Source: Escherichia phage sutha. From it: 64,000 bases of DNA. The number at the start of each line of letters is the position of its first letter. The stretch's first letter is position 1. Below are positions 4,918 to 41,708 of the stretch, one piece after another. The position numbers and the translations under genes are program-made. Below the pieces are notes generated by a model, which ran no database searches, was not told the DNA's origin, and was given only the letters and a program-made list of their open reading frames with translations. The stretch lies in the sequence record PV245934.1, one strand, 5' to 3'.

Positions 4918-5933
4918 TGTGTTGCCTCTACATATAACTGATTTGCATATTGAATAAGTGCTTCACGGTCAGAATCAGTGATGTCTGGAATTGCATTAAT
5001 GTATTCTTCCATCAACGTCTGAAGAGATTGAACTTCAACTTCTTCGCTATCATCTGACTCGACAGAGTTATCAATCTTTGACACAACTCGTAATGAATGC
5101 ACAACTTTTTCTAGTTCAGATTCGAACTTCGTTAGATTTTTGTCTACCTCAGTTACTATAACACGTACTGATAGATTTGTAAAATCTTTATAGTCAATTT
5201 TTCCCTTAAATGGATATTGAATTCGACGATGCCAGGTAGTGTTGTTTGGAATAAATTCCATTCGTTCTGTTTCTGTATCAAACATCCAGAACCCACGAGG
5301 GTCATTCTCGTCACCTGCAGTTAGTGTCCATGGTGTCCCAATATATCTGACGTTAGCAGCCTCAGAGATAGTATGGAAGTGACCAGACCACACCTCTTTA
5401 TAAGTCTTAAGGAAATCAGGTTCAAGACCGTGAGATTTCATTCCTTTATAAAAATAAAATCCATTCAGCTCCCAGTGACCGACACAAAAAGAAGCAGATG
5501 AAGTTTTGATGTGTTCAAGAATTTCACCAGTATTTTCTTCGCACATCCAAGGAATTAAATCAATCAAACATCCGTCAAAATCTACTGTAGTAGGCTTATC
5601 ATATACTTTAACATTAGGATATTTAGCCAAAAGCTCAGTAGAAGCATTTGGATGCATTACATTTTTATAGTGGAGATCGTGATTTCCTACAATAGTATGT
5701 AATGTGATTCCAGCGTCATCAAGCATTTGAACTATTTCACGGGCAAACTCCATAGTTTTATGCGTGATCGCTTTTCGTACATCAAAAATATCACCGTATT
5801 GAATCCATACAGTAATTCCATTTTTCTTAGAATATTCTATCGCTTGCTTAATTCCGTCAAGTTGAATACCGCGAATCCATTCATCATCAGCTTTAACGCC
5901 TAAATGCCAATCACCCAAGTTTAGTATTTTCAT
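4914..5933 (-). CDS. 47: recombination endonuclease subunit gp47 (Mre11/SbcD-like phosphoesterase)
   Basis: 339 aa; calcineurin-like phosphoesterase motifs (GDWH, GNHD, GHWE, GHFH); matches T4 gp47 length. Confidence 0.95.
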   Translation of the reverse strand: MKILNLGDWHLGVKADDEWIRGIQLDGIKQAIEYSKKNGITVWIQYGDIFDVRKAITHKTMEFAREIVQMLDDAGITLHTIVGNHDLHYKNVMHPNASTELLAKYPNVKVYDKPTTVDFDGCLIDLIPWMCEENTGEILEHIKTSSASFCVGHWELNGFYFYKGMKSHGLEPDFLKTYKEVWSGHFHTISEAANVRYIGTPWTLTAGDENDPRGFWMFDTETERMEFIPNNTTWHRRIQYPFKGKIDYKDFTNLSVRVIVTEVDKNLTKFESELEKVVHSLRVVSKIDNSVESDDSEEVEVQSLQTLMEEYINAIPDITDSDREALIQYANQLYVEATQ

Positions 5934-6534
5934 GGTGTCTTTTCCATCCTAATTTAGCTGCTTTTGAAACTAGTTCTTTAATTTTTCCTTTTGTCCATTC
6001 AGGACCAGGAGGTTCATGACATAACATTTGCTTAACTCCGTTATTATACCATTTTTTACCTTTATTATGCGATGAAGCTTTAAATTTATTTGACCTTCCT
6101 TTTACATAGCCTTCTGGAATATACGGTAAAAAGGCAGATTTTCCTGTTAATGGGTCATGTGAATGTATGTTTCCTTTACAATTATGAGAACCATATAATG
6201 GATGATTTTGTCCTTTAATATCTCTTCCAAATGAACCTTTTGGAGCAGCATATGACATATTAAAGAATAATGGATTTTTAACCGCATCATGCAAACGTTG
6301 ATAATATAACTCACATTTAATAGCTTCTTCGCGCGTATCAAATTCATCTAAAATGCATGAATCAAATAAATGTGGGTTATCTGAAAGTTCTTCATTATAA
6401 ATTTTCTTATACTTTTTAGATAAAACTGATCCATGATATCCGGCTAAATGCCTATCTAAAGATGTAGATCCAATATAAAAAGGAGGAAGTTTATCTCCAC
6501 TATATATTGTTAAATAAGTTATATATTTTTTCAT
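5911..6534 (-). CDS. GIY-YIG family endonuclease-like protein (Seg-like, candidate free-standing homing endonuclease)
   Basis: 207 aa; N-terminus YITYLTIYSGDKLPPFYIGSTSLDRH fits GIY...YIG...R motif; basic Gly/Lys-rich C-terminus (KGKKWYNNG); 3' end overlaps gene 47 start by 23 nt. Confidence 0.6.
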   Translation of the reverse strand: MKKYITYLTIYSGDKLPPFYIGSTSLDRHLAGYHGSVLSKKYKKIYNEELSDNPHLFDSCILDEFDTREEAIKCELYYQRLHDAVKNPLFFNMSYAAPKGSFGRDIKGQNHPLYGSHNCKGNIHSHDPLTGKSAFLPYIPEGYVKGRSNKFKASSHNKGKKWYNNGVKQMLCHEPPGPEWTKGKIKELVSKAAKLGWKRHHENTKLG

Positions 6535-10549: not shown

Positions 10550-10765
10550 TTAAATTTTCCAGTTACCGTTTTCATCAATAAATTTAATCCAGTCATTTAC
10601 TGACCACTTGGTCGTATCGCCTTTTGGAGCAACATTTAAAGTGTATAATCCTTGTTTAAAAAGCATGCGTTTGATATTCATATTTTCCTCAGCTATAACG
10701 ATAACACTCGTTTGATTTGCGCTTAGCAACTCGTTGAGAAGTATTGTAATCAAAATCATCGTCAA
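10550..10765 (-). CDS. hypothetical protein (71 aa)
   Basis: ORF in 55.x block. Confidence 0.4.
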   Translation of the reverse strand: MTMILITILLNELLSANQTSVIVIAEENMNIKRMLFKQGLYTLNVAPKGDTTKWSVNDWIKFIDENGNWKI

Positions 10766-11028
10766 TGTAAACTGATTTTTTTCAACTTTCTTACTTCACT
10801 ACGTAATTGACGATTTAGCTCATCTTTAACTTCTGAATCAATGCCTTTCATTCTACGCCATTTATCAGAGCGAAAAATGTTTTCAACCATATCTTTATGA
10901 CTTACACCATCAGGAGCTTTACGCTTTCCGAAATAGTCATAATCACGTACTTTTAAATCTTTACGACGATACGTTTTACCCATGGAGTTTAATTTCCTTA
11001 GCAACTGAACTAAATACAGCACGATCAC
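10762..11028 (-). CDS. hypothetical basic protein (88 aa)
   Basis: ORF in 55.x block. Confidence 0.4.
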   Translation of the reverse strand: MIVLYLVQLLRKLNSMGKTYRRKDLKVRDYDYFGKRKAPDGVSHKDMVENIFRSDKWRRMKGIDSEVKDELNRQLRSEVRKLKKISLH

Positions 11029-11315: not shown

Positions 11316-11639
11316 TTAGTCTTCTATGATATCTCTATCATATCCAAGTGAAATGAGAGTTTCTTTGAAGTGTTTAATGTTCTTTTGTCTAGAATCATTG
11401 ATGAAAATGACTGGATAACGAATGTTAAGAGATGTGAATCCAGCACGTTTAGCAAGAGATACAATCAGTGGACGATCATACTCAATCTTACCATTATTTG
11501 TAAGAACTTTATAGAAAGTAAAAGGAGCATTGAGCTCCTTTAGAAGTTTTGTAACTGATTGACATCCAGGACAACGACCTACTTCATCTGGAATTCCATA
11601 GACTTCAATCTTATTCTTTGAGTTCGAGTTTTGTTCCAC
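11316..11639 (-). CDS. nrdH: glutaredoxin/NrdH-like redoxin
   Basis: CPGC redox motif in thioredoxin-fold context (KIEVYGIPDEVGRCPGCQS); track ORF extends to 11768 but I place start at GTG 11639 preceded by AAGGAA SD; upstream ORF 11611-11922 overlaps otherwise. Confidence 0.55.
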   Translation of the reverse strand: MEQNSNSKNKIEVYGIPDEVGRCPGCQSVTKLLKELNAPFTFYKVLTNNGKIEYDRPLIVSLAKRAGFTSLNIRYPVIFINDSRQKNIKHFKETLISLGYDRDIIED

Positions 11640-11922
11640 GAGAAATAATTCCTTGATAAGCCCAGTATGGCGGGTTAACAGAATCATCGCCAGAATTTTC
11701 TTCAGGAAAATAAACCTGGATAACAAATCCAGATGCATCAAAGGTAAAATAAACCGTAGGTAATTCACCTAACAATTCAGCACGGTTATTAATTTCTTCA
11801 AGTTCTCGTTCTCGTCCAGCCCAAAAACTAGGATTTAGACTACATTCATAGAAATAATAGTCATTACCGAACATATCAAAACCCTTCCAACTCTCTACCA
11901 CATATCGCTCAAAACTAATCAT
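11611..11922 (-). CDS. hypothetical protein (103 aa)
   Basis: Minus-strand ORF. Confidence 0.45.
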   Translation of the reverse strand: MISFERYVVESWKGFDMFGNDYYFYECSLNPSFWAGRERELEEINNRAELLGELPTVYFTFDASGFVIQVYFPEENSGDDSVNPPYWAYQGIISRGTKLELKE

Positions 11923-11924
11923 AA

Positions 11925-12140
11925 TTAGGCCTTTTTATCAAGAACAGCATTTAGTTTGTTAGTAATTTTATCCAGACGCTCATTGAACTCGCTAGAAGAT
12001 AAGCCTTTTTCTGGAGAAATTAAGCTAATCACGAAAAATATAGCAATAAAAGGAATAAGGAAAATAGCTCCAACTGCCATAAACAGAAAGAATGTTACAG
12101 TTGTAAGAAAATCAGCTAAACCTTTACGAAATTTATACAT
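11925..12140 (-). CDS. small membrane protein (71 aa, one TM helix)
   Basis: Hydrophobic stretch FLFMAVGAIFLIPFIAIFFVISLI. Confidence 0.45.
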   Translation of the reverse strand: MYKFRKGLADFLTTVTFFLFMAVGAIFLIPFIAIFFVISLISPEKGLSSSEFNERLDKITNKLNAVLDKKA

Positions 12141-12149
12141 ATTTTACCC

Positions 12150-12374
12150 TTAATTGATTAACCAAGCATTGATAAGCACTAAACTATACTGTGAATAAAA
12201 TTCTGGACCAAAATGAAAAATCATATCATTTATAGTATCCATAATGTAATTCAATTTAATCATGTTTCCACACCCCATCGGTATTTGACCAAAGTCGCTG
12301 ATTATCTGATCCTCGCCACAGCTTTTTGGTCGGAAGATTTTTCTCATACTTCCCATCAATAATAACATCAACAT
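12150..12374 (-). CDS. possible small ORF (true start probably internal, around 12242-12263)
   Basis: Track ORF overlaps nrdG 3' end by 119 nt; only the distal 30-37 codons are likely real if anything. Confidence 0.2.
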   Translation of the reverse strand: MLMLLLMGSMRKIFRPKSCGEDQIISDFGQIPMGCGNMIKLNYIMDTINDMIFHFGPEFYSQYSLVLINAWLIN

Positions 12375-12726
12375 ATTTAAGCATTTCTAGTTGTTTAATA
12401 TCTTCAAACTTATATCCTGTCCACAACCAAATGCTTTTATTGGGATAAAGATTTTTTACTGTTTGAACAATGCAATGAATAACATCTCGGTTATCAGGAT
12501 AGAGAGGGTCTCCTCCAGTTATAGTTAATCCTTCTATATAATCATTATTCAAACATTCAATTAATTGTTCTAGTGTTTCACCAGTGAATGGAACGCCATT
12601 TCTAGCATTCCATGTTGATTTATTATAACACCCTTCACATTTATGCAAACAACCTGTAACGAAAAGAACGACCCTGCATCCAGGACCATTAACAAAGCAG
12701 CAAGGGTATATTCTGTCATAATTCAT
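12256..12726 (-). CDS. nrdG: anaerobic ribonucleotide reductase activating protein NrdG (radical SAM)
   Basis: Cys cluster CxxxCxxC (GCLHKCEGC); start placed at Met-8 (MNYDRIY...), which abuts stop of upstream ORF and gives 156 aa as recalled for T4 NrdG. Confidence 0.9.
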   Translation of the reverse strand: MNYDRIYPCCFVNGPGCRVVLFVTGCLHKCEGCYNKSTWNARNGVPFTGETLEQLIECLNNDYIEGLTITGGDPLYPDNRDVIHCIVQTVKNLYPNKSIWLWTGYKFEDIKQLEMLKYVDVIIDGKYEKNLPTKKLWRGSDNQRLWSNTDGVWKHD

Positions 12727-13457
12727 AATAATATCCAATTTTTCCAAGCTTCATCAGTAGAATTACAGCGTTTTAGTATAAGATGTCTAGAAACTTTTAT
12801 GGCATTTGAGCACTTTTTAATTGAATCATATTTAATACCGTCAACTGAAACGGTTTTGCTAGTTGGAGAAATTTTTCCATACATTGGATTTTTTGAACCA
12901 ACTTGAAGTCCTTTTAAAGCTTTTGAAAGCTTTTGTCTAGATTCCAATGACATGGGAGAATTCTTTTTACCTTCAATAATTCGCTTGCGATGAAGTTCGC
13001 GTTCTTCTTCACTCAAAGAATTGTAATATTTTTTAACACCGTTTGATATAGATAATTTATCTTTCTCAGACCGCTCTCCAGCTAATTTACTTCTAACATC
13101 TTTTCGCTTCATAGCTATGCTTACGGCTTTATTTAAATTTGCTTGATGCTCTGGCGTACGTTTATATTTCTTTAAAGCACGTGAAATAGCTATTTTAGTT
13201 TCTTCTGTTCTCTTTTTACCTTTATTTGCTAAACTATTTTTGCGGCGATGTTCAAGTGTCTGTTCATAGGCAGTTCCACCTTTTCCACCAGGTTTAATAT
13301 TATATGTATTTTCTTTTAGACAATACTCTTCGGTTACAAGTTCAGCTTCTTTATCATACATTTGTTTTTCATTATCAAAAACATGTAAAATTTCTTTATT
13401 AAAATTTTTTCTACCATGTTTTAATAAAGCGGCACGAATCAATGTTCCTGACCCCAT
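12723..13457 (-). CDS. GIY-YIG homing-endonuclease-like protein, distal portion (linker repeats plus C-terminal DNA-binding domain)
   Basis: 244 aa; GSGTLIRAALLKHGRKNF...EIL resembles second half of I-TevI catalytic domain; Lys/Gly-rich repeat linker; C-terminus VDGIKYDSIKKCSNAIKVSRHLILKRC...WKNW resembles I-TevI HTH tail. Confidence 0.65.
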   Translation of the reverse strand: MGSGTLIRAALLKHGRKNFNKEILHVFDNEKQMYDKEAELVTEEYCLKENTYNIKPGGKGGTAYEQTLEHRRKNSLANKGKKRTEETKIAISRALKKYKRTPEHQANLNKAVSIAMKRKDVRSKLAGERSEKDKLSISNGVKKYYNSLSEEERELHRKRIIEGKKNSPMSLESRQKLSKALKGLQVGSKNPMYGKISPTSKTVSVDGIKYDSIKKCSNAIKVSRHLILKRCNSTDEAWKNWILL

Positions 13458-13464
13458 ATAACCG

Positions 13465-13557
13465 TCATTTATTTATGTTATCGGTGCTATGCGCACCGAT
13501 ATATTCCTTTGAATTAATTATATTTGTTATTTTATAAATTATATAATACCTATGCAT
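13465..13557 (-). pseudogene. N-terminal GIY-YIG motif fragment in a different frame from the downstream ORF (frameshifted or split homing endonuclease gene)
   Basis: Short ORF MHRYYIIYKITNIINSKEYIGAHSTDNINK ending in TGA; ATG overlaps nrdD stop (CATGCATAG); main ORF starts 8 nt later in +1 frame. Confidence 0.5.
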
Positions 13558-15367
13558 GTTTTACTCGTTTTACCATTTCTTTCATTTTACCTAAATTCCA
13601 TGGAACAACGCTAGGAGTTCCAAGATATCCGCATGTTCTTCTTATTGTATTCATCTTTTTAGGATCAGTTTCTCCACAAATAGAACAAACAAATCCGTTT
13701 TCAGTAGGAGTCATTTCATGGGTACTTCCACACGTAAAACATTTATCTACTGGCATATTAACACCAAAATAATCTAAATGTTGTGCAGCATAATCCCATA
13801 CAGCCTCAAGACCTTTTAGGTTATTTTTCATATCAGGAAGTTCAACATAAGAAATGTGACCACCTGTCGCAATGAAATGATACGGTGCTTCGCGAGAAAT
13901 CTTTTCAAACGGAGTAATATTTTCTTCTACTGAAACGTGGAAACTATTAGTGTACCAGCCTTTATCGGTAACATCTTTTACACTTCCATATTTTTCGGTA
14001 TCAAGTTTACAGAAGCGATAACACAGGTTTTCAGCAGGAGTAGAATACAAGCTAAAAGCAAATCCGGTTCTTTCAGTCCACTGTTTAAGACGAGCATTCA
14101 TTTTAGTCAAAATTTCTTGCCCAATATCACGACCGACAAGAATATTCAATTCGTGAATACCGATGTATCCCAGGGATACTGAACTTCTACCGTTTTTAAA
14201 TAACTCAATTATATCATCATCGGGTTTAAGACGAACCCCGAATGCACCTTCTTGGTAAAGAATAGGAGCAACAGTAGCTTTAACTCCTTTTAATGAACTA
14301 ATTCTACACATCAATGCTTCAAAACATAAATCCATTCGCTCATTGAACAATTCGGCAAATTTCTGTTCATTGAATTGTGTTCCAATATAAGAATCTAACG
14401 CAATGCGAGGAAGATTCAGTGTTACAACGCCAAGATTATTACGTCCATCAAGAATTTCATTACCAGTCGAATCTTTCCATACGCTCAAGAAACTACGGCA
14501 ACCCATTGGAGAAACAGGAATAGATGAACCTGTGATAGCTTTATTGTTCTTAGCCGAAATGATGTCAGGATACATTCTTTTGCTTGCGCATTCTAAAGCA
14601 AGCTGCTTAATATCATAGTTCGGATCGTCTTTATAAAGATTAACACCTTCTTCAACAAACATAACAAGTTTAGGGAAAATAGGAGTTATCCCATCACGAC
14701 CAAGGCCTTTAATACGATTTTTCAGAATTGCTTTCTGAATCATTCGTTCAGTCCAGTCAGTTCCCGTACCAAATGTAATTGTTACAAAAGGCGTTTGTCC
14801 GTTTGAACTAAAGAGAGTATTTACTTCATATTCATAAGCTTGGAATGCATCGTATACATCTTTTTCTGTTTTAGATTGGGCATAATTCAACGCATCAGCG
14901 ATTTGCCATTTTTCTGCGTCCTCAATATGTTTTGCATAGGTGCGTTTAACATAAGGAGAAAGGACTTTATCTACATTCGCAAAAGTCGTTCCACCGTATT
15001 GATGGGAAGCAACCTGTGCAGTAATTTGTGCCATAATTGCAGTAGCAACACCGATTGATTTAGGAGTTTCAATCTGTGCATTACCGAGCTTAAATCCGTT
15101 CTCAAGCATTCCTTTTAAATCTACTAAACAGCAATTAGTAAATGGAAGAGCAGGGGAATAATCAATATCATGGAAATGAATAATTCCGCTTTCATGCGCT
15201 TTCATAATAAAAGACGGGACCATATTTTTGGCAATGTGTTTAGACACAATACCAGCCATAAGGTCCCGTTGAGTTGGAAAAACACGAGAATCTTTATTAG
15301 CATTCTCGTTTAAAAGGTCTTTATTAGTTTTATGAATCAATCCTTCAATTTCTTTTTCAATTGTCAT
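13550..15367 (-). CDS. nrdD: anaerobic ribonucleoside-triphosphate reductase NrdD (uninterrupted)
   Basis: 605 aa continuous ORF; C-terminal glycyl-radical motif RRTCGYLG and Zn-ribbon CxxC...CxxC; no intron. Confidence 0.95.
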   Translation of the reverse strand: MTIEKEIEGLIHKTNKDLLNENANKDSRVFPTQRDLMAGIVSKHIAKNMVPSFIMKAHESGIIHFHDIDYSPALPFTNCCLVDLKGMLENGFKLGNAQIETPKSIGVATAIMAQITAQVASHQYGGTTFANVDKVLSPYVKRTYAKHIEDAEKWQIADALNYAQSKTEKDVYDAFQAYEYEVNTLFSSNGQTPFVTITFGTGTDWTERMIQKAILKNRIKGLGRDGITPIFPKLVMFVEEGVNLYKDDPNYDIKQLALECASKRMYPDIISAKNNKAITGSSIPVSPMGCRSFLSVWKDSTGNEILDGRNNLGVVTLNLPRIALDSYIGTQFNEQKFAELFNERMDLCFEALMCRISSLKGVKATVAPILYQEGAFGVRLKPDDDIIELFKNGRSSVSLGYIGIHELNILVGRDIGQEILTKMNARLKQWTERTGFAFSLYSTPAENLCYRFCKLDTEKYGSVKDVTDKGWYTNSFHVSVEENITPFEKISREAPYHFIATGGHISYVELPDMKNNLKGLEAVWDYAAQHLDYFGVNMPVDKCFTCGSTHEMTPTENGFVCSICGETDPKKMNTIRRTCGYLGTPSVVPWNLGKMKEMVKRVKHA

Positions 15368-15837
15368 TTTAAACTCTTTCTAAGCTGCTTCTTAAATGAA
15401 GTTATTAATTGTGTTTTGGTGTCAGATTCATTATATTCAAATCCTCTTTGAAGCATCTCAGCCATCATTTCCTCTTTTCCTAAACGAGAAAATTCCTTTG
15501 ATTTATCTCCAACAAAGTTAGGGTGAATATTATTTTGGGTGTAATCGGATTTTAAATAAGTAAGTAAATTTTCTAACCATTCAAGATAATCAACACCTTG
15601 CCCCTTTAAGCCAGAACGATTAAATTTATGTTTCATTTGACCTTCTGCAGCATTGCAGAGATTACATAGCAACCCACGTACCTTTCCTGCTTTTGGTCCA
15701 TTTAATTCATGGTCATGGTCAAGGTGATTAGCTTGAACATCAGGATTTAGTTCTCGTTGGCAAATTAAGCATTTACCGCTTTGTGCATCATAAAATTTCT
15801 GTTTTTCTTCTTTGTATAATTTGCCAGTCAATAACAT
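15364..15837 (-). CDS. 49: endonuclease VII (Holliday junction resolvase) gp49
   Basis: 157 aa; HNH-like motif with CxxC...HLDHDH...CNLCN; position upstream of nrdD as in T4. Confidence 0.9.
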   Translation of the reverse strand: MLLTGKLYKEEKQKFYDAQSGKCLICQRELNPDVQANHLDHDHELNGPKAGKVRGLLCNLCNAAEGQMKHKFNRSGLKGQGVDYLEWLENLLTYLKSDYTQNNIHPNFVGDKSKEFSRLGKEEMMAEMLQRGFEYNESDTKTQLITSFKKQLRKSLK

Positions 15838-15885
15838 AATAAACCCTTACCTTAAATAGATAAGGGTATTTATTATTTTCAAGTA

Positions 15886-16350
15886 TTAAAATGCTCGTTC
15901 AGAAAAAGAAATTTGAGTTTCAAGCCATTCAATATATTCTGCTGCAGCTTGCATCAAATTTCCTTCATAGCCATCGTTATTTTCTTGTGCAGCTAATTTA
16001 GCTAATGCATATGAAATACGTTCACCCTGAAAAGCGGCTTTAGGTTTATGAATAGCTTGATCAACTCGTTCTACAACTTCTTCAATTTCGCCATTTTCTA
16101 CTGATTCAGTATTCCACAAGCACCAATACGTAATTGGCTTATCATAGATGTTAATAATCTTTCCATCAGAAAGTTCAATTTCAATAATTCCAGTATCAGG
16201 TTCTATATCATCTTCACATTCTTTTGCAAGTTCACGAACTTTAAAGACAGTACCTGCACTAAGTTCCGGCCAGTAATTACACAGCCCTTTATCAGCACGA
16301 TTAATTCTAAACCACTTATCTACTGTAATCATGTCCCATCTCCATATCAA
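15886..16350 (-). CDS. hypothetical protein (154 aa; occupies position of T4 pin)
   Basis: Synteny only; sequence identity to Pin not verified. Confidence 0.4.
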   Translation of the reverse strand: MIWRWDMITVDKWFRINRADKGLCNYWPELSAGTVFKVRELAKECEDDIEPDTGIIEIELSDGKIINIYDKPITYWCLWNTESVENGEIEEVVERVDQAIHKPKAAFQGERISYALAKLAAQENNDGYEGNLMQAAAEYIEWLETQISFSERAF

Positions 16351-17436: not shown

Positions 17437-17679
17437 TTATTCCTTAATTCCTAGTACTTGTTTAAAAGTCTCGTCGTAATCAAGACTTTGACCTGTTTGT
17501 TCTTTATGTTTGTATATAATATCACTTACTTCTGATAGCATATTTTTATATGAACGAGTTAAAGCAGATTTAAGTACGCTGTATCTATCAGGAAATTTAC
17601 CGTGTTCATTATAATACGCTATTGCTAATTCACGGACTGCCTTTTCAGCAATCTCCATATATTCTTTACGCTTTGTCAT
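17437..17679 (-). CDS. hypothetical protein (80 aa)
   Basis: ORF in nrdC.x block. Confidence 0.45.
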
Positions 17680-17984
17680 TTTTTTTCTCGGTTAAATCGG
17701 TGTTTGCAATGACGGCATTTATAACGAAGATTACTAGTCTGCCAATGAACTAATTGAACCTGTTCAGTACCGCATTCAGGACAATTAGGAACGTTTTTAG
17801 AAGCCCTTTCGCGGCGTTCAACCATAGCCATAATGGCATCCCAAGCAGGAGGTTTAAAGTCTAGATCGTCACAACCATGAATCTTTCCACGCATTTCTAA
17901 ATCGTCTTCTTCACCAGCCATAATAATTTTAATTAGACTGGAATTACTTGAAGCTGCAATATCTTCTAATAGACGCTTTTTCAT
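17676..17984 (-). CDS. zinc-ribbon protein (102 aa)
   Basis: CPECG...CRHCKH four-Cys motif. Confidence 0.45.
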
Positions 17985-41153: not shown

Positions 41154-41708
41154 TTACCGGTAGCGACCCGGTTTCTCATTTGGTATTTCAAATTGTGTAG
41201 ATTTAGTATCTAATTTTTTAACTATGGAACTTATGTCATGAAAGAAAAACCATTCACTATTTATATGGTCCTGATTATAAATGCTGTGCATATATTTTTC
41301 AAGTTCTACTGCATCCTGGGAATATCTAAATGATACTATTTTAAAACTTTTAAACGGTGAAAATGTATTTGCTGTTATAACTCTAACATCAGGTTCTATA
41401 CTTCTTCCTATTTTATAATAATTAGGATTTGTAGTATCTACCATTATGTATACGAAAGCCTGTCGATAGCTTTTTTCTATATCAAATTCATCTTTAAATT
41501 TCAAAAGATTTAGGGCGGCAGTCCTACAAAATACTTTCCATTTTGACAAGCGTTTGGCTTTAGTCATAGAAAAGAATTTTTTCTTATCTGTTATTTTAAG
41601 AAAAGCAACATTTTCAATTAGTTCTTGTGTTATTTCAAAATTACCATGGTATATTAATCCAGCTTTTATAGCCAAATTAATTTGGTCCCAGTCTACATCA
41701 CTTCTCAT
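41154..41708 (-). CDS. T5orf172/GIY-YIG-like domain protein
   Basis: 184 aa; C-terminal half has AFVYIMVDTTNPNYYKIGRSIEPDVRV... resembling T5orf172 (KIG-x-S/T) motif; sits between tRNA-Arg and stable RNA locus. Confidence 0.5.
   Translation of the reverse strand: MRSDVDWDQINLAIKAGLIYHGNFEITQELIENVAFLKITDKKKFFSMTKAKRLSKWKVFCRTAALNLLKFKDEFDIEKSYRQAFVYIMVDTTNPNYYKIGRSIEPDVRVITANTFSPFKSFKIVSFRYSQDAVELEKYMHSIYNQDHINSEWFFFHDISSIVKKLDTKSTQFEIPNEKPGRYR

Follow-up and report, generated by a model that had tools for sequence, protein, structure and literature searches.

A segH homing endonuclease allele split by a four-nucleotide duplication between nrdD and nrdG of a Tequatrovirus

Introduction

In T-even phages, the free-standing GIY-YIG homing endonuclease SegH reportedly cleaves co-infecting phages in the nrdD-nrdG region, and its gene is then copied in by break repair. 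SegH of RB3, LZ2 and related T-even phages was reportedly described by Sandegren, Nord and Sjoberg in 2005 (NAR 33:6203). The original RB3 and LZ2 deposits (AY262138 and AY262139) carry the gene under the name SegH, and its layout is identical in PP01, T6, e11/2 and LZ2, where segH lies between nrdD and nrdG, co-oriented with them and overlapping both.

Two further systems bear comparison with SegH. I-TevI shares with it the beta-beta-alpha-beta-alpha GIY-YIG catalytic fold (1MK0 and 1LN0) and a modular architecture that combines NUMOD3 with a helix-turn-helix DNA-binding domain at the C-terminus; the two enzymes are about 25% identical, and I-TevI is encoded within the T4 td intron whereas SegH is free-standing. 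The second is mobC of T4, which fills the slot that segH takes up between nrdD and nrdG (PMC2988022 Table 1) but belongs to the unrelated HNH family. Phage homing endonuclease genes characteristically acquire frameshifts and deletions, as already described (PMC10448857), and the truncated I-TevIII of T4 and the frameshifted homing endonuclease genes of ICP1 phages are cases where a nuclease gene was inactivated but kept in place (PMC2790892; PMC10448857).

Here we examine the nrdD-nrdG junction in a 64,000-nt stretch of phage DNA (the window), whose source is a Tequatrovirus with a top long-range identity of ~96% to phage records. The original prediction placed a frameshifted, free-standing endonuclease gene between an intron-less nrdD and nrdG, and offered either decay or a +1 recoding event as its explanation. 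Our comparisons put a name to that gene, segH, and we estimate a probability of about 0.75 that the cassette was recently inactivated by a real 4-nt duplication, in the ordinary course of homing-endonuclease decay. Both the gene and this kind of decay are known; the allele itself is private.

Results

The reading frames between nrdD and nrdG correspond to segH

We recovered each element of the predicted arrangement (Table 1): a 30-codon frame (ORF1) that overlaps the nrdD stop and ends at TGA, a 244-codon frame (ORF2) that continues in the +1 frame, a continuous nrdD and a 3′ end that abuts the nrdG start. The ATG of ORF2 lies 7 nt past the TGA of ORF1, and the two starts are separated by 100 nt. 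By tblastn, nrdD is 99.7% identical to NrdD of phage KIT06 over its full length, and it is a continuous frame; therefore, it has no intron. The neighbouring nrdG is 98.1% identical to its KIT06 counterpart by the same method.

Table 1. Positions of the features discussed in the text, counted from the first letter of the window
Feature	Coordinates	Strand	Description
207-aa ORF with a GIY-YIG N-terminus	5911-6534	minus	PF01541 20.1 bits, just below cutoff
T4 gene 55.5 homolog	10550-11028	minus	split at ~10782 by a T6-to-T7 run (+ strand); 97 aa in KIT06
nrdG	12256-12726	minus	156 aa; ATG overlaps segH TGA (ATGA, 12723-12726)
segH, entire cassette (assigned as a pseudogene)	12723-13557	minus	835 nt; 831 nt in intact relatives
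ORF2	12723-13457	minus	244 codons, +1 frame; PHROG 314, E=7e-45
NUMOD3 and I-TevI-type C-terminal DNA-binding (helix-turn-helix) region	12735-12956	minus	Pfam PF07460, PF20987
GIY-YIG catalytic domain coding region	13275-13557	minus	codes for repaired-protein residues 1-93; split by the duplication
ORF1	13465-13557	minus	30 aa, MHRYYIIYKITNIINSKEYIGAHSTDNINK; stop TGA; ATG 8 nt inside nrdD
4-nt tandem duplication	13467-13476	minus	ATAAATAAAT instead of ATAAAT; shifts the frame and creates TGA at 13465-13467
Perfect 9-bp inverted repeat	13479-13501	minus	TATCGGTGC-5 nt-GCACCGATA; segH codons 19-27
nrdD	13550-15367	minus	continuous ORF, 605 aa, intron-less; last 8 nt overlap the segH start
184-aa ORF with T5orf172/MUG113 domains	41154-41708	minus	36 bits; tRNA-region neighbourhood

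When positions 12200-13800 were searched by megablast against 50,697 phage records, 842 T4-like phages were matched, and in 70 of these the whole query was covered at 97-99% identity. The full-coverage phages carry the annotation "homing endonuclease" between nrdD and nrdG, and the gene is called SegH by name in PP01, T6, F2 and e11/2. Nucleotide identity to segH-carrying T-even phages is 98-99%, and both the location of the gene and its overlaps are shared. At the protein level, residues 1-29 of KIT06 SegH match ORF1 at 100% identity and residues 28-276 match ORF2 at 99.6%, in different frames (tblastn), and this two-frame match means that the resemblance of the two ORFs to SegH has not arisen by chance.

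Intact segH is one 831-nt ORF of 276 codons in all eight relatives that were translated, and the gene in the window departs from this by its split into 30 and 244 codons. Removing four nucleotides restores a 276-aa protein whose gene differs from PP01 segH by a single nucleotide, resulting in the substitution Y46H. The repaired translation differs from RB3 SegH by Y46H alone and from LZ2 SegH by two residues, and the repaired gene is 1-3 nucleotides away from those of RB3, LZ2 and PP01. On the strength of these alignments, we identify the two ORFs together as the already described segH, and classify the copy in the window as a pseudogene allele rather than a functional member.

A private four-nucleotide duplication separates the two frames

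Alignment and gapped blastn against KIT06 revealed a single length difference from the relatives at segH: GATAAC-ATAA-ATAA-ATGACGG stands in the window and GATAAC-ATAA-ATGACGG in every relative. The lesion is thus a 4-nt tandem duplication and not the 1-nt indel at 13458-13467 that had been proposed. Nor is a segment missing between the two parts, as had been suspected, since intact homologs read ...STDNINDGYMGSG... straight across the ORF1/ORF2 junction.

A 71-nt probe centred on the duplication site found 67 segH-carrying phage records, none with the extra four bases; 66 match at 94.4%, which is exactly a 4-nt gap. The exact 244-aa product of ORF2 is not on record. Exact-pattern scans of IMG/VR and JGI metagenome contigs found neither the duplicated nor the intact junction, and these collections are uninformative on the duplicated allele because the intact junction is absent from them as well.

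A perfect 9-bp inverted repeat lies just ahead of the duplicated tetranucleotide, its end 2 nt away in the mRNA sense. It forms part of the centroid RNA fold, is identical in the relatives and is present in all segH copies aligned; conceivably, it may have promoted slippage or may influence translation. An Rfam scan of positions 11500-16000 yielded nothing credible.

The substitution Y46H is also private (0/66 records), and we considered it as a second inactivating hit. We rejected this because His is common at this column of the profile alignment (45 of the 120 homologs) and is also the residue in I-TevI; Y46H is a conservative change.

The repaired protein has an I-TevI-like GIY-YIG fold

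The original prediction of an I-TevI-like GIY-YIG enzyme was borne out by profile and structure comparisons. The sequence matches PHROG 314 ("homing endonuclease") with E=5e-60, and ORF1 by itself matches this family with E=6.7e-7. TIGR01453 ("group I intron endonuclease") is matched with E=5e-13, at 49.5 bits and below its cutoff of 56. Among Pfam models, NUMOD3 (PF07460) scores above its cutoff (34.8 bits), while I-TevI_DNA-bd (PF20987; 21.4 bits, cutoff 27) and SegE_GIY-YIG (19 bits, cutoff 25) fall below theirs, and all Pfam GIY-YIG matches are sub-threshold. Many of 518 homologs carry PF01541 or PF19835.

Searches of PDB sequences with the repaired protein and with a 120-sequence profile gave no meaningful match. 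I-TevI is too remote for HMMER, and we consequently turned to hhalign and to Foldseek on an AlphaFold2 model of intact SegH. Residues 3-93 of the 120-homolog profile align with I-TevI residues 1-98 (95.5% probability, E=1.4e-8), so the GIY-YIG fold, whose absence by profile search would have refuted the prediction, was found. The model has pLDDT values of 96-98 over residues 1-90 and contains strand beta1 (4-12), strand beta2 (18-25), a helix (37-46), strand beta3 (51-59) and a second helix (62-72). The first three Foldseek matches are all the I-TevI catalytic domain (1MK0 and 1LN0), with probability 1.00 and target TM-scores of 0.59-0.64. Based on the profile match, the Foldseek ranking and TIGR01453, the GIY-YIG assignment is therefore sound.

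The GIY-YIG motifs read YIIY...EYIG. The residues invariant in the 120 homologs are Y8, Y19, G21, H23, D30, Y32, G34, S35 and G36, followed by F51, E69, V73, Y84, N85, G89 and G90. The catalytic Glu and Asn correspond to E69 and N85; N85 aligns with I-TevI N90 by hhalign, and E69 is off by one in register from I-TevI E75, within a low-confidence stretch of the alignment.

The absent arginine segment is a family trait

An Arg-containing segment was expected between the two parts of the gene, and its absence was taken as a possible sign of decay. The absence itself is real. In the profile alignment, the I-TevI helix with catalytic R27 (DFEKRWKRH) faces a gap of nine residues in the SegH family, and the AlphaFold2 model of intact SegH has a loop rather than a helix at this position. 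Where I-TevI has its R27 helix, the SegH family instead has an invariant D-G-Y-M-G-S-G loop. As a sign of decay, the missing segment was rejected because the whole SegH family lacks it, intact genes included. Position 40 is Lys or Arg in 93 of the 120 homologs and Gln in SegH of Salmonella phage KM16, and a Lys or Arg at this position might substitute for the catalytic Arg.

The break divides the catalytic residues

The break in the frame follows codon 28-29 and lies in the loop that joins beta2 to the invariant DGYMGSG motif. None of the 120 homologs has an insertion in this loop (positions 22-37). ORF1 covers the hairpin of beta1 and beta2, which carries the GIY and YIG tyrosines (Y8 and Y19) together with G21 and H23, and the remaining functional positions (D30, Y32, G34-S35-G36, E69 and N85) lie downstream of the break. 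ORF2 starts at M33; it is without the hairpin, D30 and Y32, and keeps the GSG residues, E69, N85 and the DNA-binding region. Because the break falls within a loop of invariant length and splits the catalytic residues, neither ORF alone is predicted to be a complete or active nuclease, and no active nuclease should be made from the split allele.

Other states of the junction

Most Tequatroviruses (e.g. RB32) have no insert, and their nrdD TGA overlaps the nrdG ATG. T4 has mobC in the slot and, unlike the window, an I-TevII intron in nrdD. Phage PD112 (vB_vPM_PD112) retains a segH remnant at 544-860, in which ~590 nt were deleted between the short direct repeats TTAAAATATG and TTAAATATG, fusing the first ~46 codons to the last ~45; at this locus, it represents a decay event independent of that in the window. 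Taken together, the junctions of T4, RB32 and PD112 indicate that the nrdD/nrdG locus shows every stage of the homing-endonuclease cycle, with the window representing the earliest degeneration.

Between phages with and without segH, divergence is strong over the final ~80 nt of nrdD and the initial ~35 nt of nrdG, a pattern that we read as the usual footprint around a homing site. Comparing nrdD at 13550-13640 with RB32 470-551, the C-termini are ...KEMVKRVKHA* in segH-positive phages vs ...KEIMHRVKHQ* in segH-negative ones. The start of segH, ATGCATAGG, resembles ATGCATAGGG of RB32 nrdD, and this resemblance hints at the route by which the cassette was inserted.

In the segH-positive phages G3F7 (1569-2040), G3F10 and PM123, nrdG is annotated in two pieces, which suggests a frameshift in nrdG itself, beside segH.

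Elsewhere in the window, the 207-aa ORF is flanked by gene 47, whose start it overlaps, and by alpha-gt. KIT06 lacks this ORF (alignment gap 5934-6527), which probably encodes a further Seg-type endonuclease of the free-standing kind. The 184-aa ORF may be another putative homing-endonuclease-like gene.

A sequencing or assembly artefact is unlikely

The extra ATAA could instead be an error in a low-complexity A/T stretch, in which case the phage would carry an intact 276-codon segH. In favour of this, the insertion is unique among the 67 segH-carrying records, and the remaining gene is essentially identical to functional alleles. We compared ~90 CDS of KIT06 and F26 with the window by tblastn as a check on the assembly. 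Only segH and the T4 gene 55.5 homolog are frameshifted, while the essential replication, baseplate and tail genes are intact. The second frameshift, a T7 run 2.7 kb from segH, is likewise unique (shared by 0/417 phage records), and its type, a homopolymer +1 (T6 to T7), is typical of some sequencing platforms and speaks for an artefact. However, tandem duplications of 4 nt typically arise by replication slippage and differ from the usual 1-nt homopolymer error, and the absence of further frame disruptions across ~90 CDS, long essential genes included, indicates a low error rate. Moreover, both frameshifts fall in dispensable accessory genes, as expected of real mutations under selection. On balance, we consider an artefact unlikely.

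The same tblastn comparison returned one in-frame stop in the nrdC.2 homolog (17670-17984, minus strand) relative to its KIT06 counterpart, close to a T run that differs by 1 nt at 17679; the C-terminus of its product is probably altered.

Re-initiation and recoding are poorly compatible with the allele

If ribosomes re-initiated at the AUG 7 nt past the UGA, the allele could retain a partial function as a 244-aa, nuclease-dead DNA-binding SegH, which might shield the target from a co-infecting SegH, act as a repressor or merely couple nrdG translation. In I-TevI, the DNA-binding domain can bind its target when the nuclease domain is missing; I-TevI also reportedly acts as an autorepressor, according to Edgell et al. 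in 2004. The NUMOD3 and I-TevI-type DNA-binding region is complete in ORF2, and coupling is plausible since nrdG overlaps the ORF2 stop and has no obvious Shine-Dalgarno sequence upstream of its start. The stop-to-AUG distance of 7 nt is within the range discussed for re-initiation in T4 endonuclease genes (PMC2988022). Against these points, the AUG is the Met of the conserved DGYMGSG motif (Met in 115 of the 120 homologs) rather than a start that has evolved as such, it is not preceded by a Shine-Dalgarno sequence, and so private and young an allele has left selection no time to shape a new function. A retained partial function thus seems distinctly improbable, and still more so the specific version in which the re-initiated fragment would protect the SegH target site or repress local transcription with nrdG still coupled.

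The least probable reading is programmed +1 recoding at AAA-UGA-C (or AAU-AAA), which would yield a 277-aa SegH with one extra residue and serve as a throttle on a toxic nuclease. The frame could be regained by a +1 shift at one place alone, the AAU AAA codons that immediately precede the UGA, and a UGA followed by C, as found here, is the context of the prfB frameshift site. In addition, T4 homing endonucleases are made at very low levels via unusual translational arrangements (PMC2988022). We nevertheless rejected programmed +1 frameshifting as very unlikely: the shift is not conserved (0/67 relatives, and a plain in-frame gene in 8/8 translated), there is no Shine-Dalgarno-like stimulator in the upstream sequence ACCGATAACATAAAT and no GGAGG-like element in the 20 nt upstream, re-pairing of tRNA-Lys from AAA to AAU is imperfect, and the extra residue would fall next to invariant D30 in a loop that has no insertion in 120 homologs. 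Spontaneous shifting at a low level may nonetheless occur.

Discussion

The choice left by the original prediction, decay or +1 recoding, falls to decay, as the shift is private (0/67 records) and lacks a stimulatory signal. In the decay that we favour, an intact SegH, with its N-terminal I-TevI-like nuclease domain and its C-terminal NUMOD3/helix-turn-helix DNA-binding region, would have been disrupted by a 4-nt duplication that most likely arose through replication slippage in the A/T repeat ATAAAT. Translation would halt after 30 codons, parting the two catalytic tyrosines from the catalytic Glu and Asn. The remainder of the gene is essentially unmutated, so the duplication event would be recent. 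The dead cassette presumably stays in place because it overlaps the nrdD stop at one end and the nrdG start at the other, and a clean removal would need a precise deletion.

Compared to SegH of RB3, LZ2, T6 and PP01, with which it shares the nrdD/nrdG junction and the overlaps with both neighbours, the allele differs by the 4-nt duplication after codon 28-29, the resulting 30-/244-codon split and the private Y46H. It differs from the truncated T4 I-TevIII and the ICP1 genes in the kind and age of its lesion, which is younger and amounts to one 4-nt duplication, the gene being pristine in all other respects.

For annotation, both ORFs should be recorded jointly as a segH pseudogene, and not as a "hypothetical protein" and a "homing endonuclease". 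The absence of the R27-helix motif in SegH-type GIY-YIG enzymes should not be read as decay. Beyond annotation, the finding has little significance, though crosses with segH-positive and segH-negative T-even phages could use the allele as a naturally occurring nuclease-null control. If the ORF2 fragment did prove functional, the allele would mark the beginning of the domestication of a homing endonuclease as a site-specific DNA-binding protein. Under the preferred reading of recent decay, it would be a snapshot of the first degeneration step in the accepted cycle of homing endonuclease genes, which runs through invasion, fixation, degeneration and loss.
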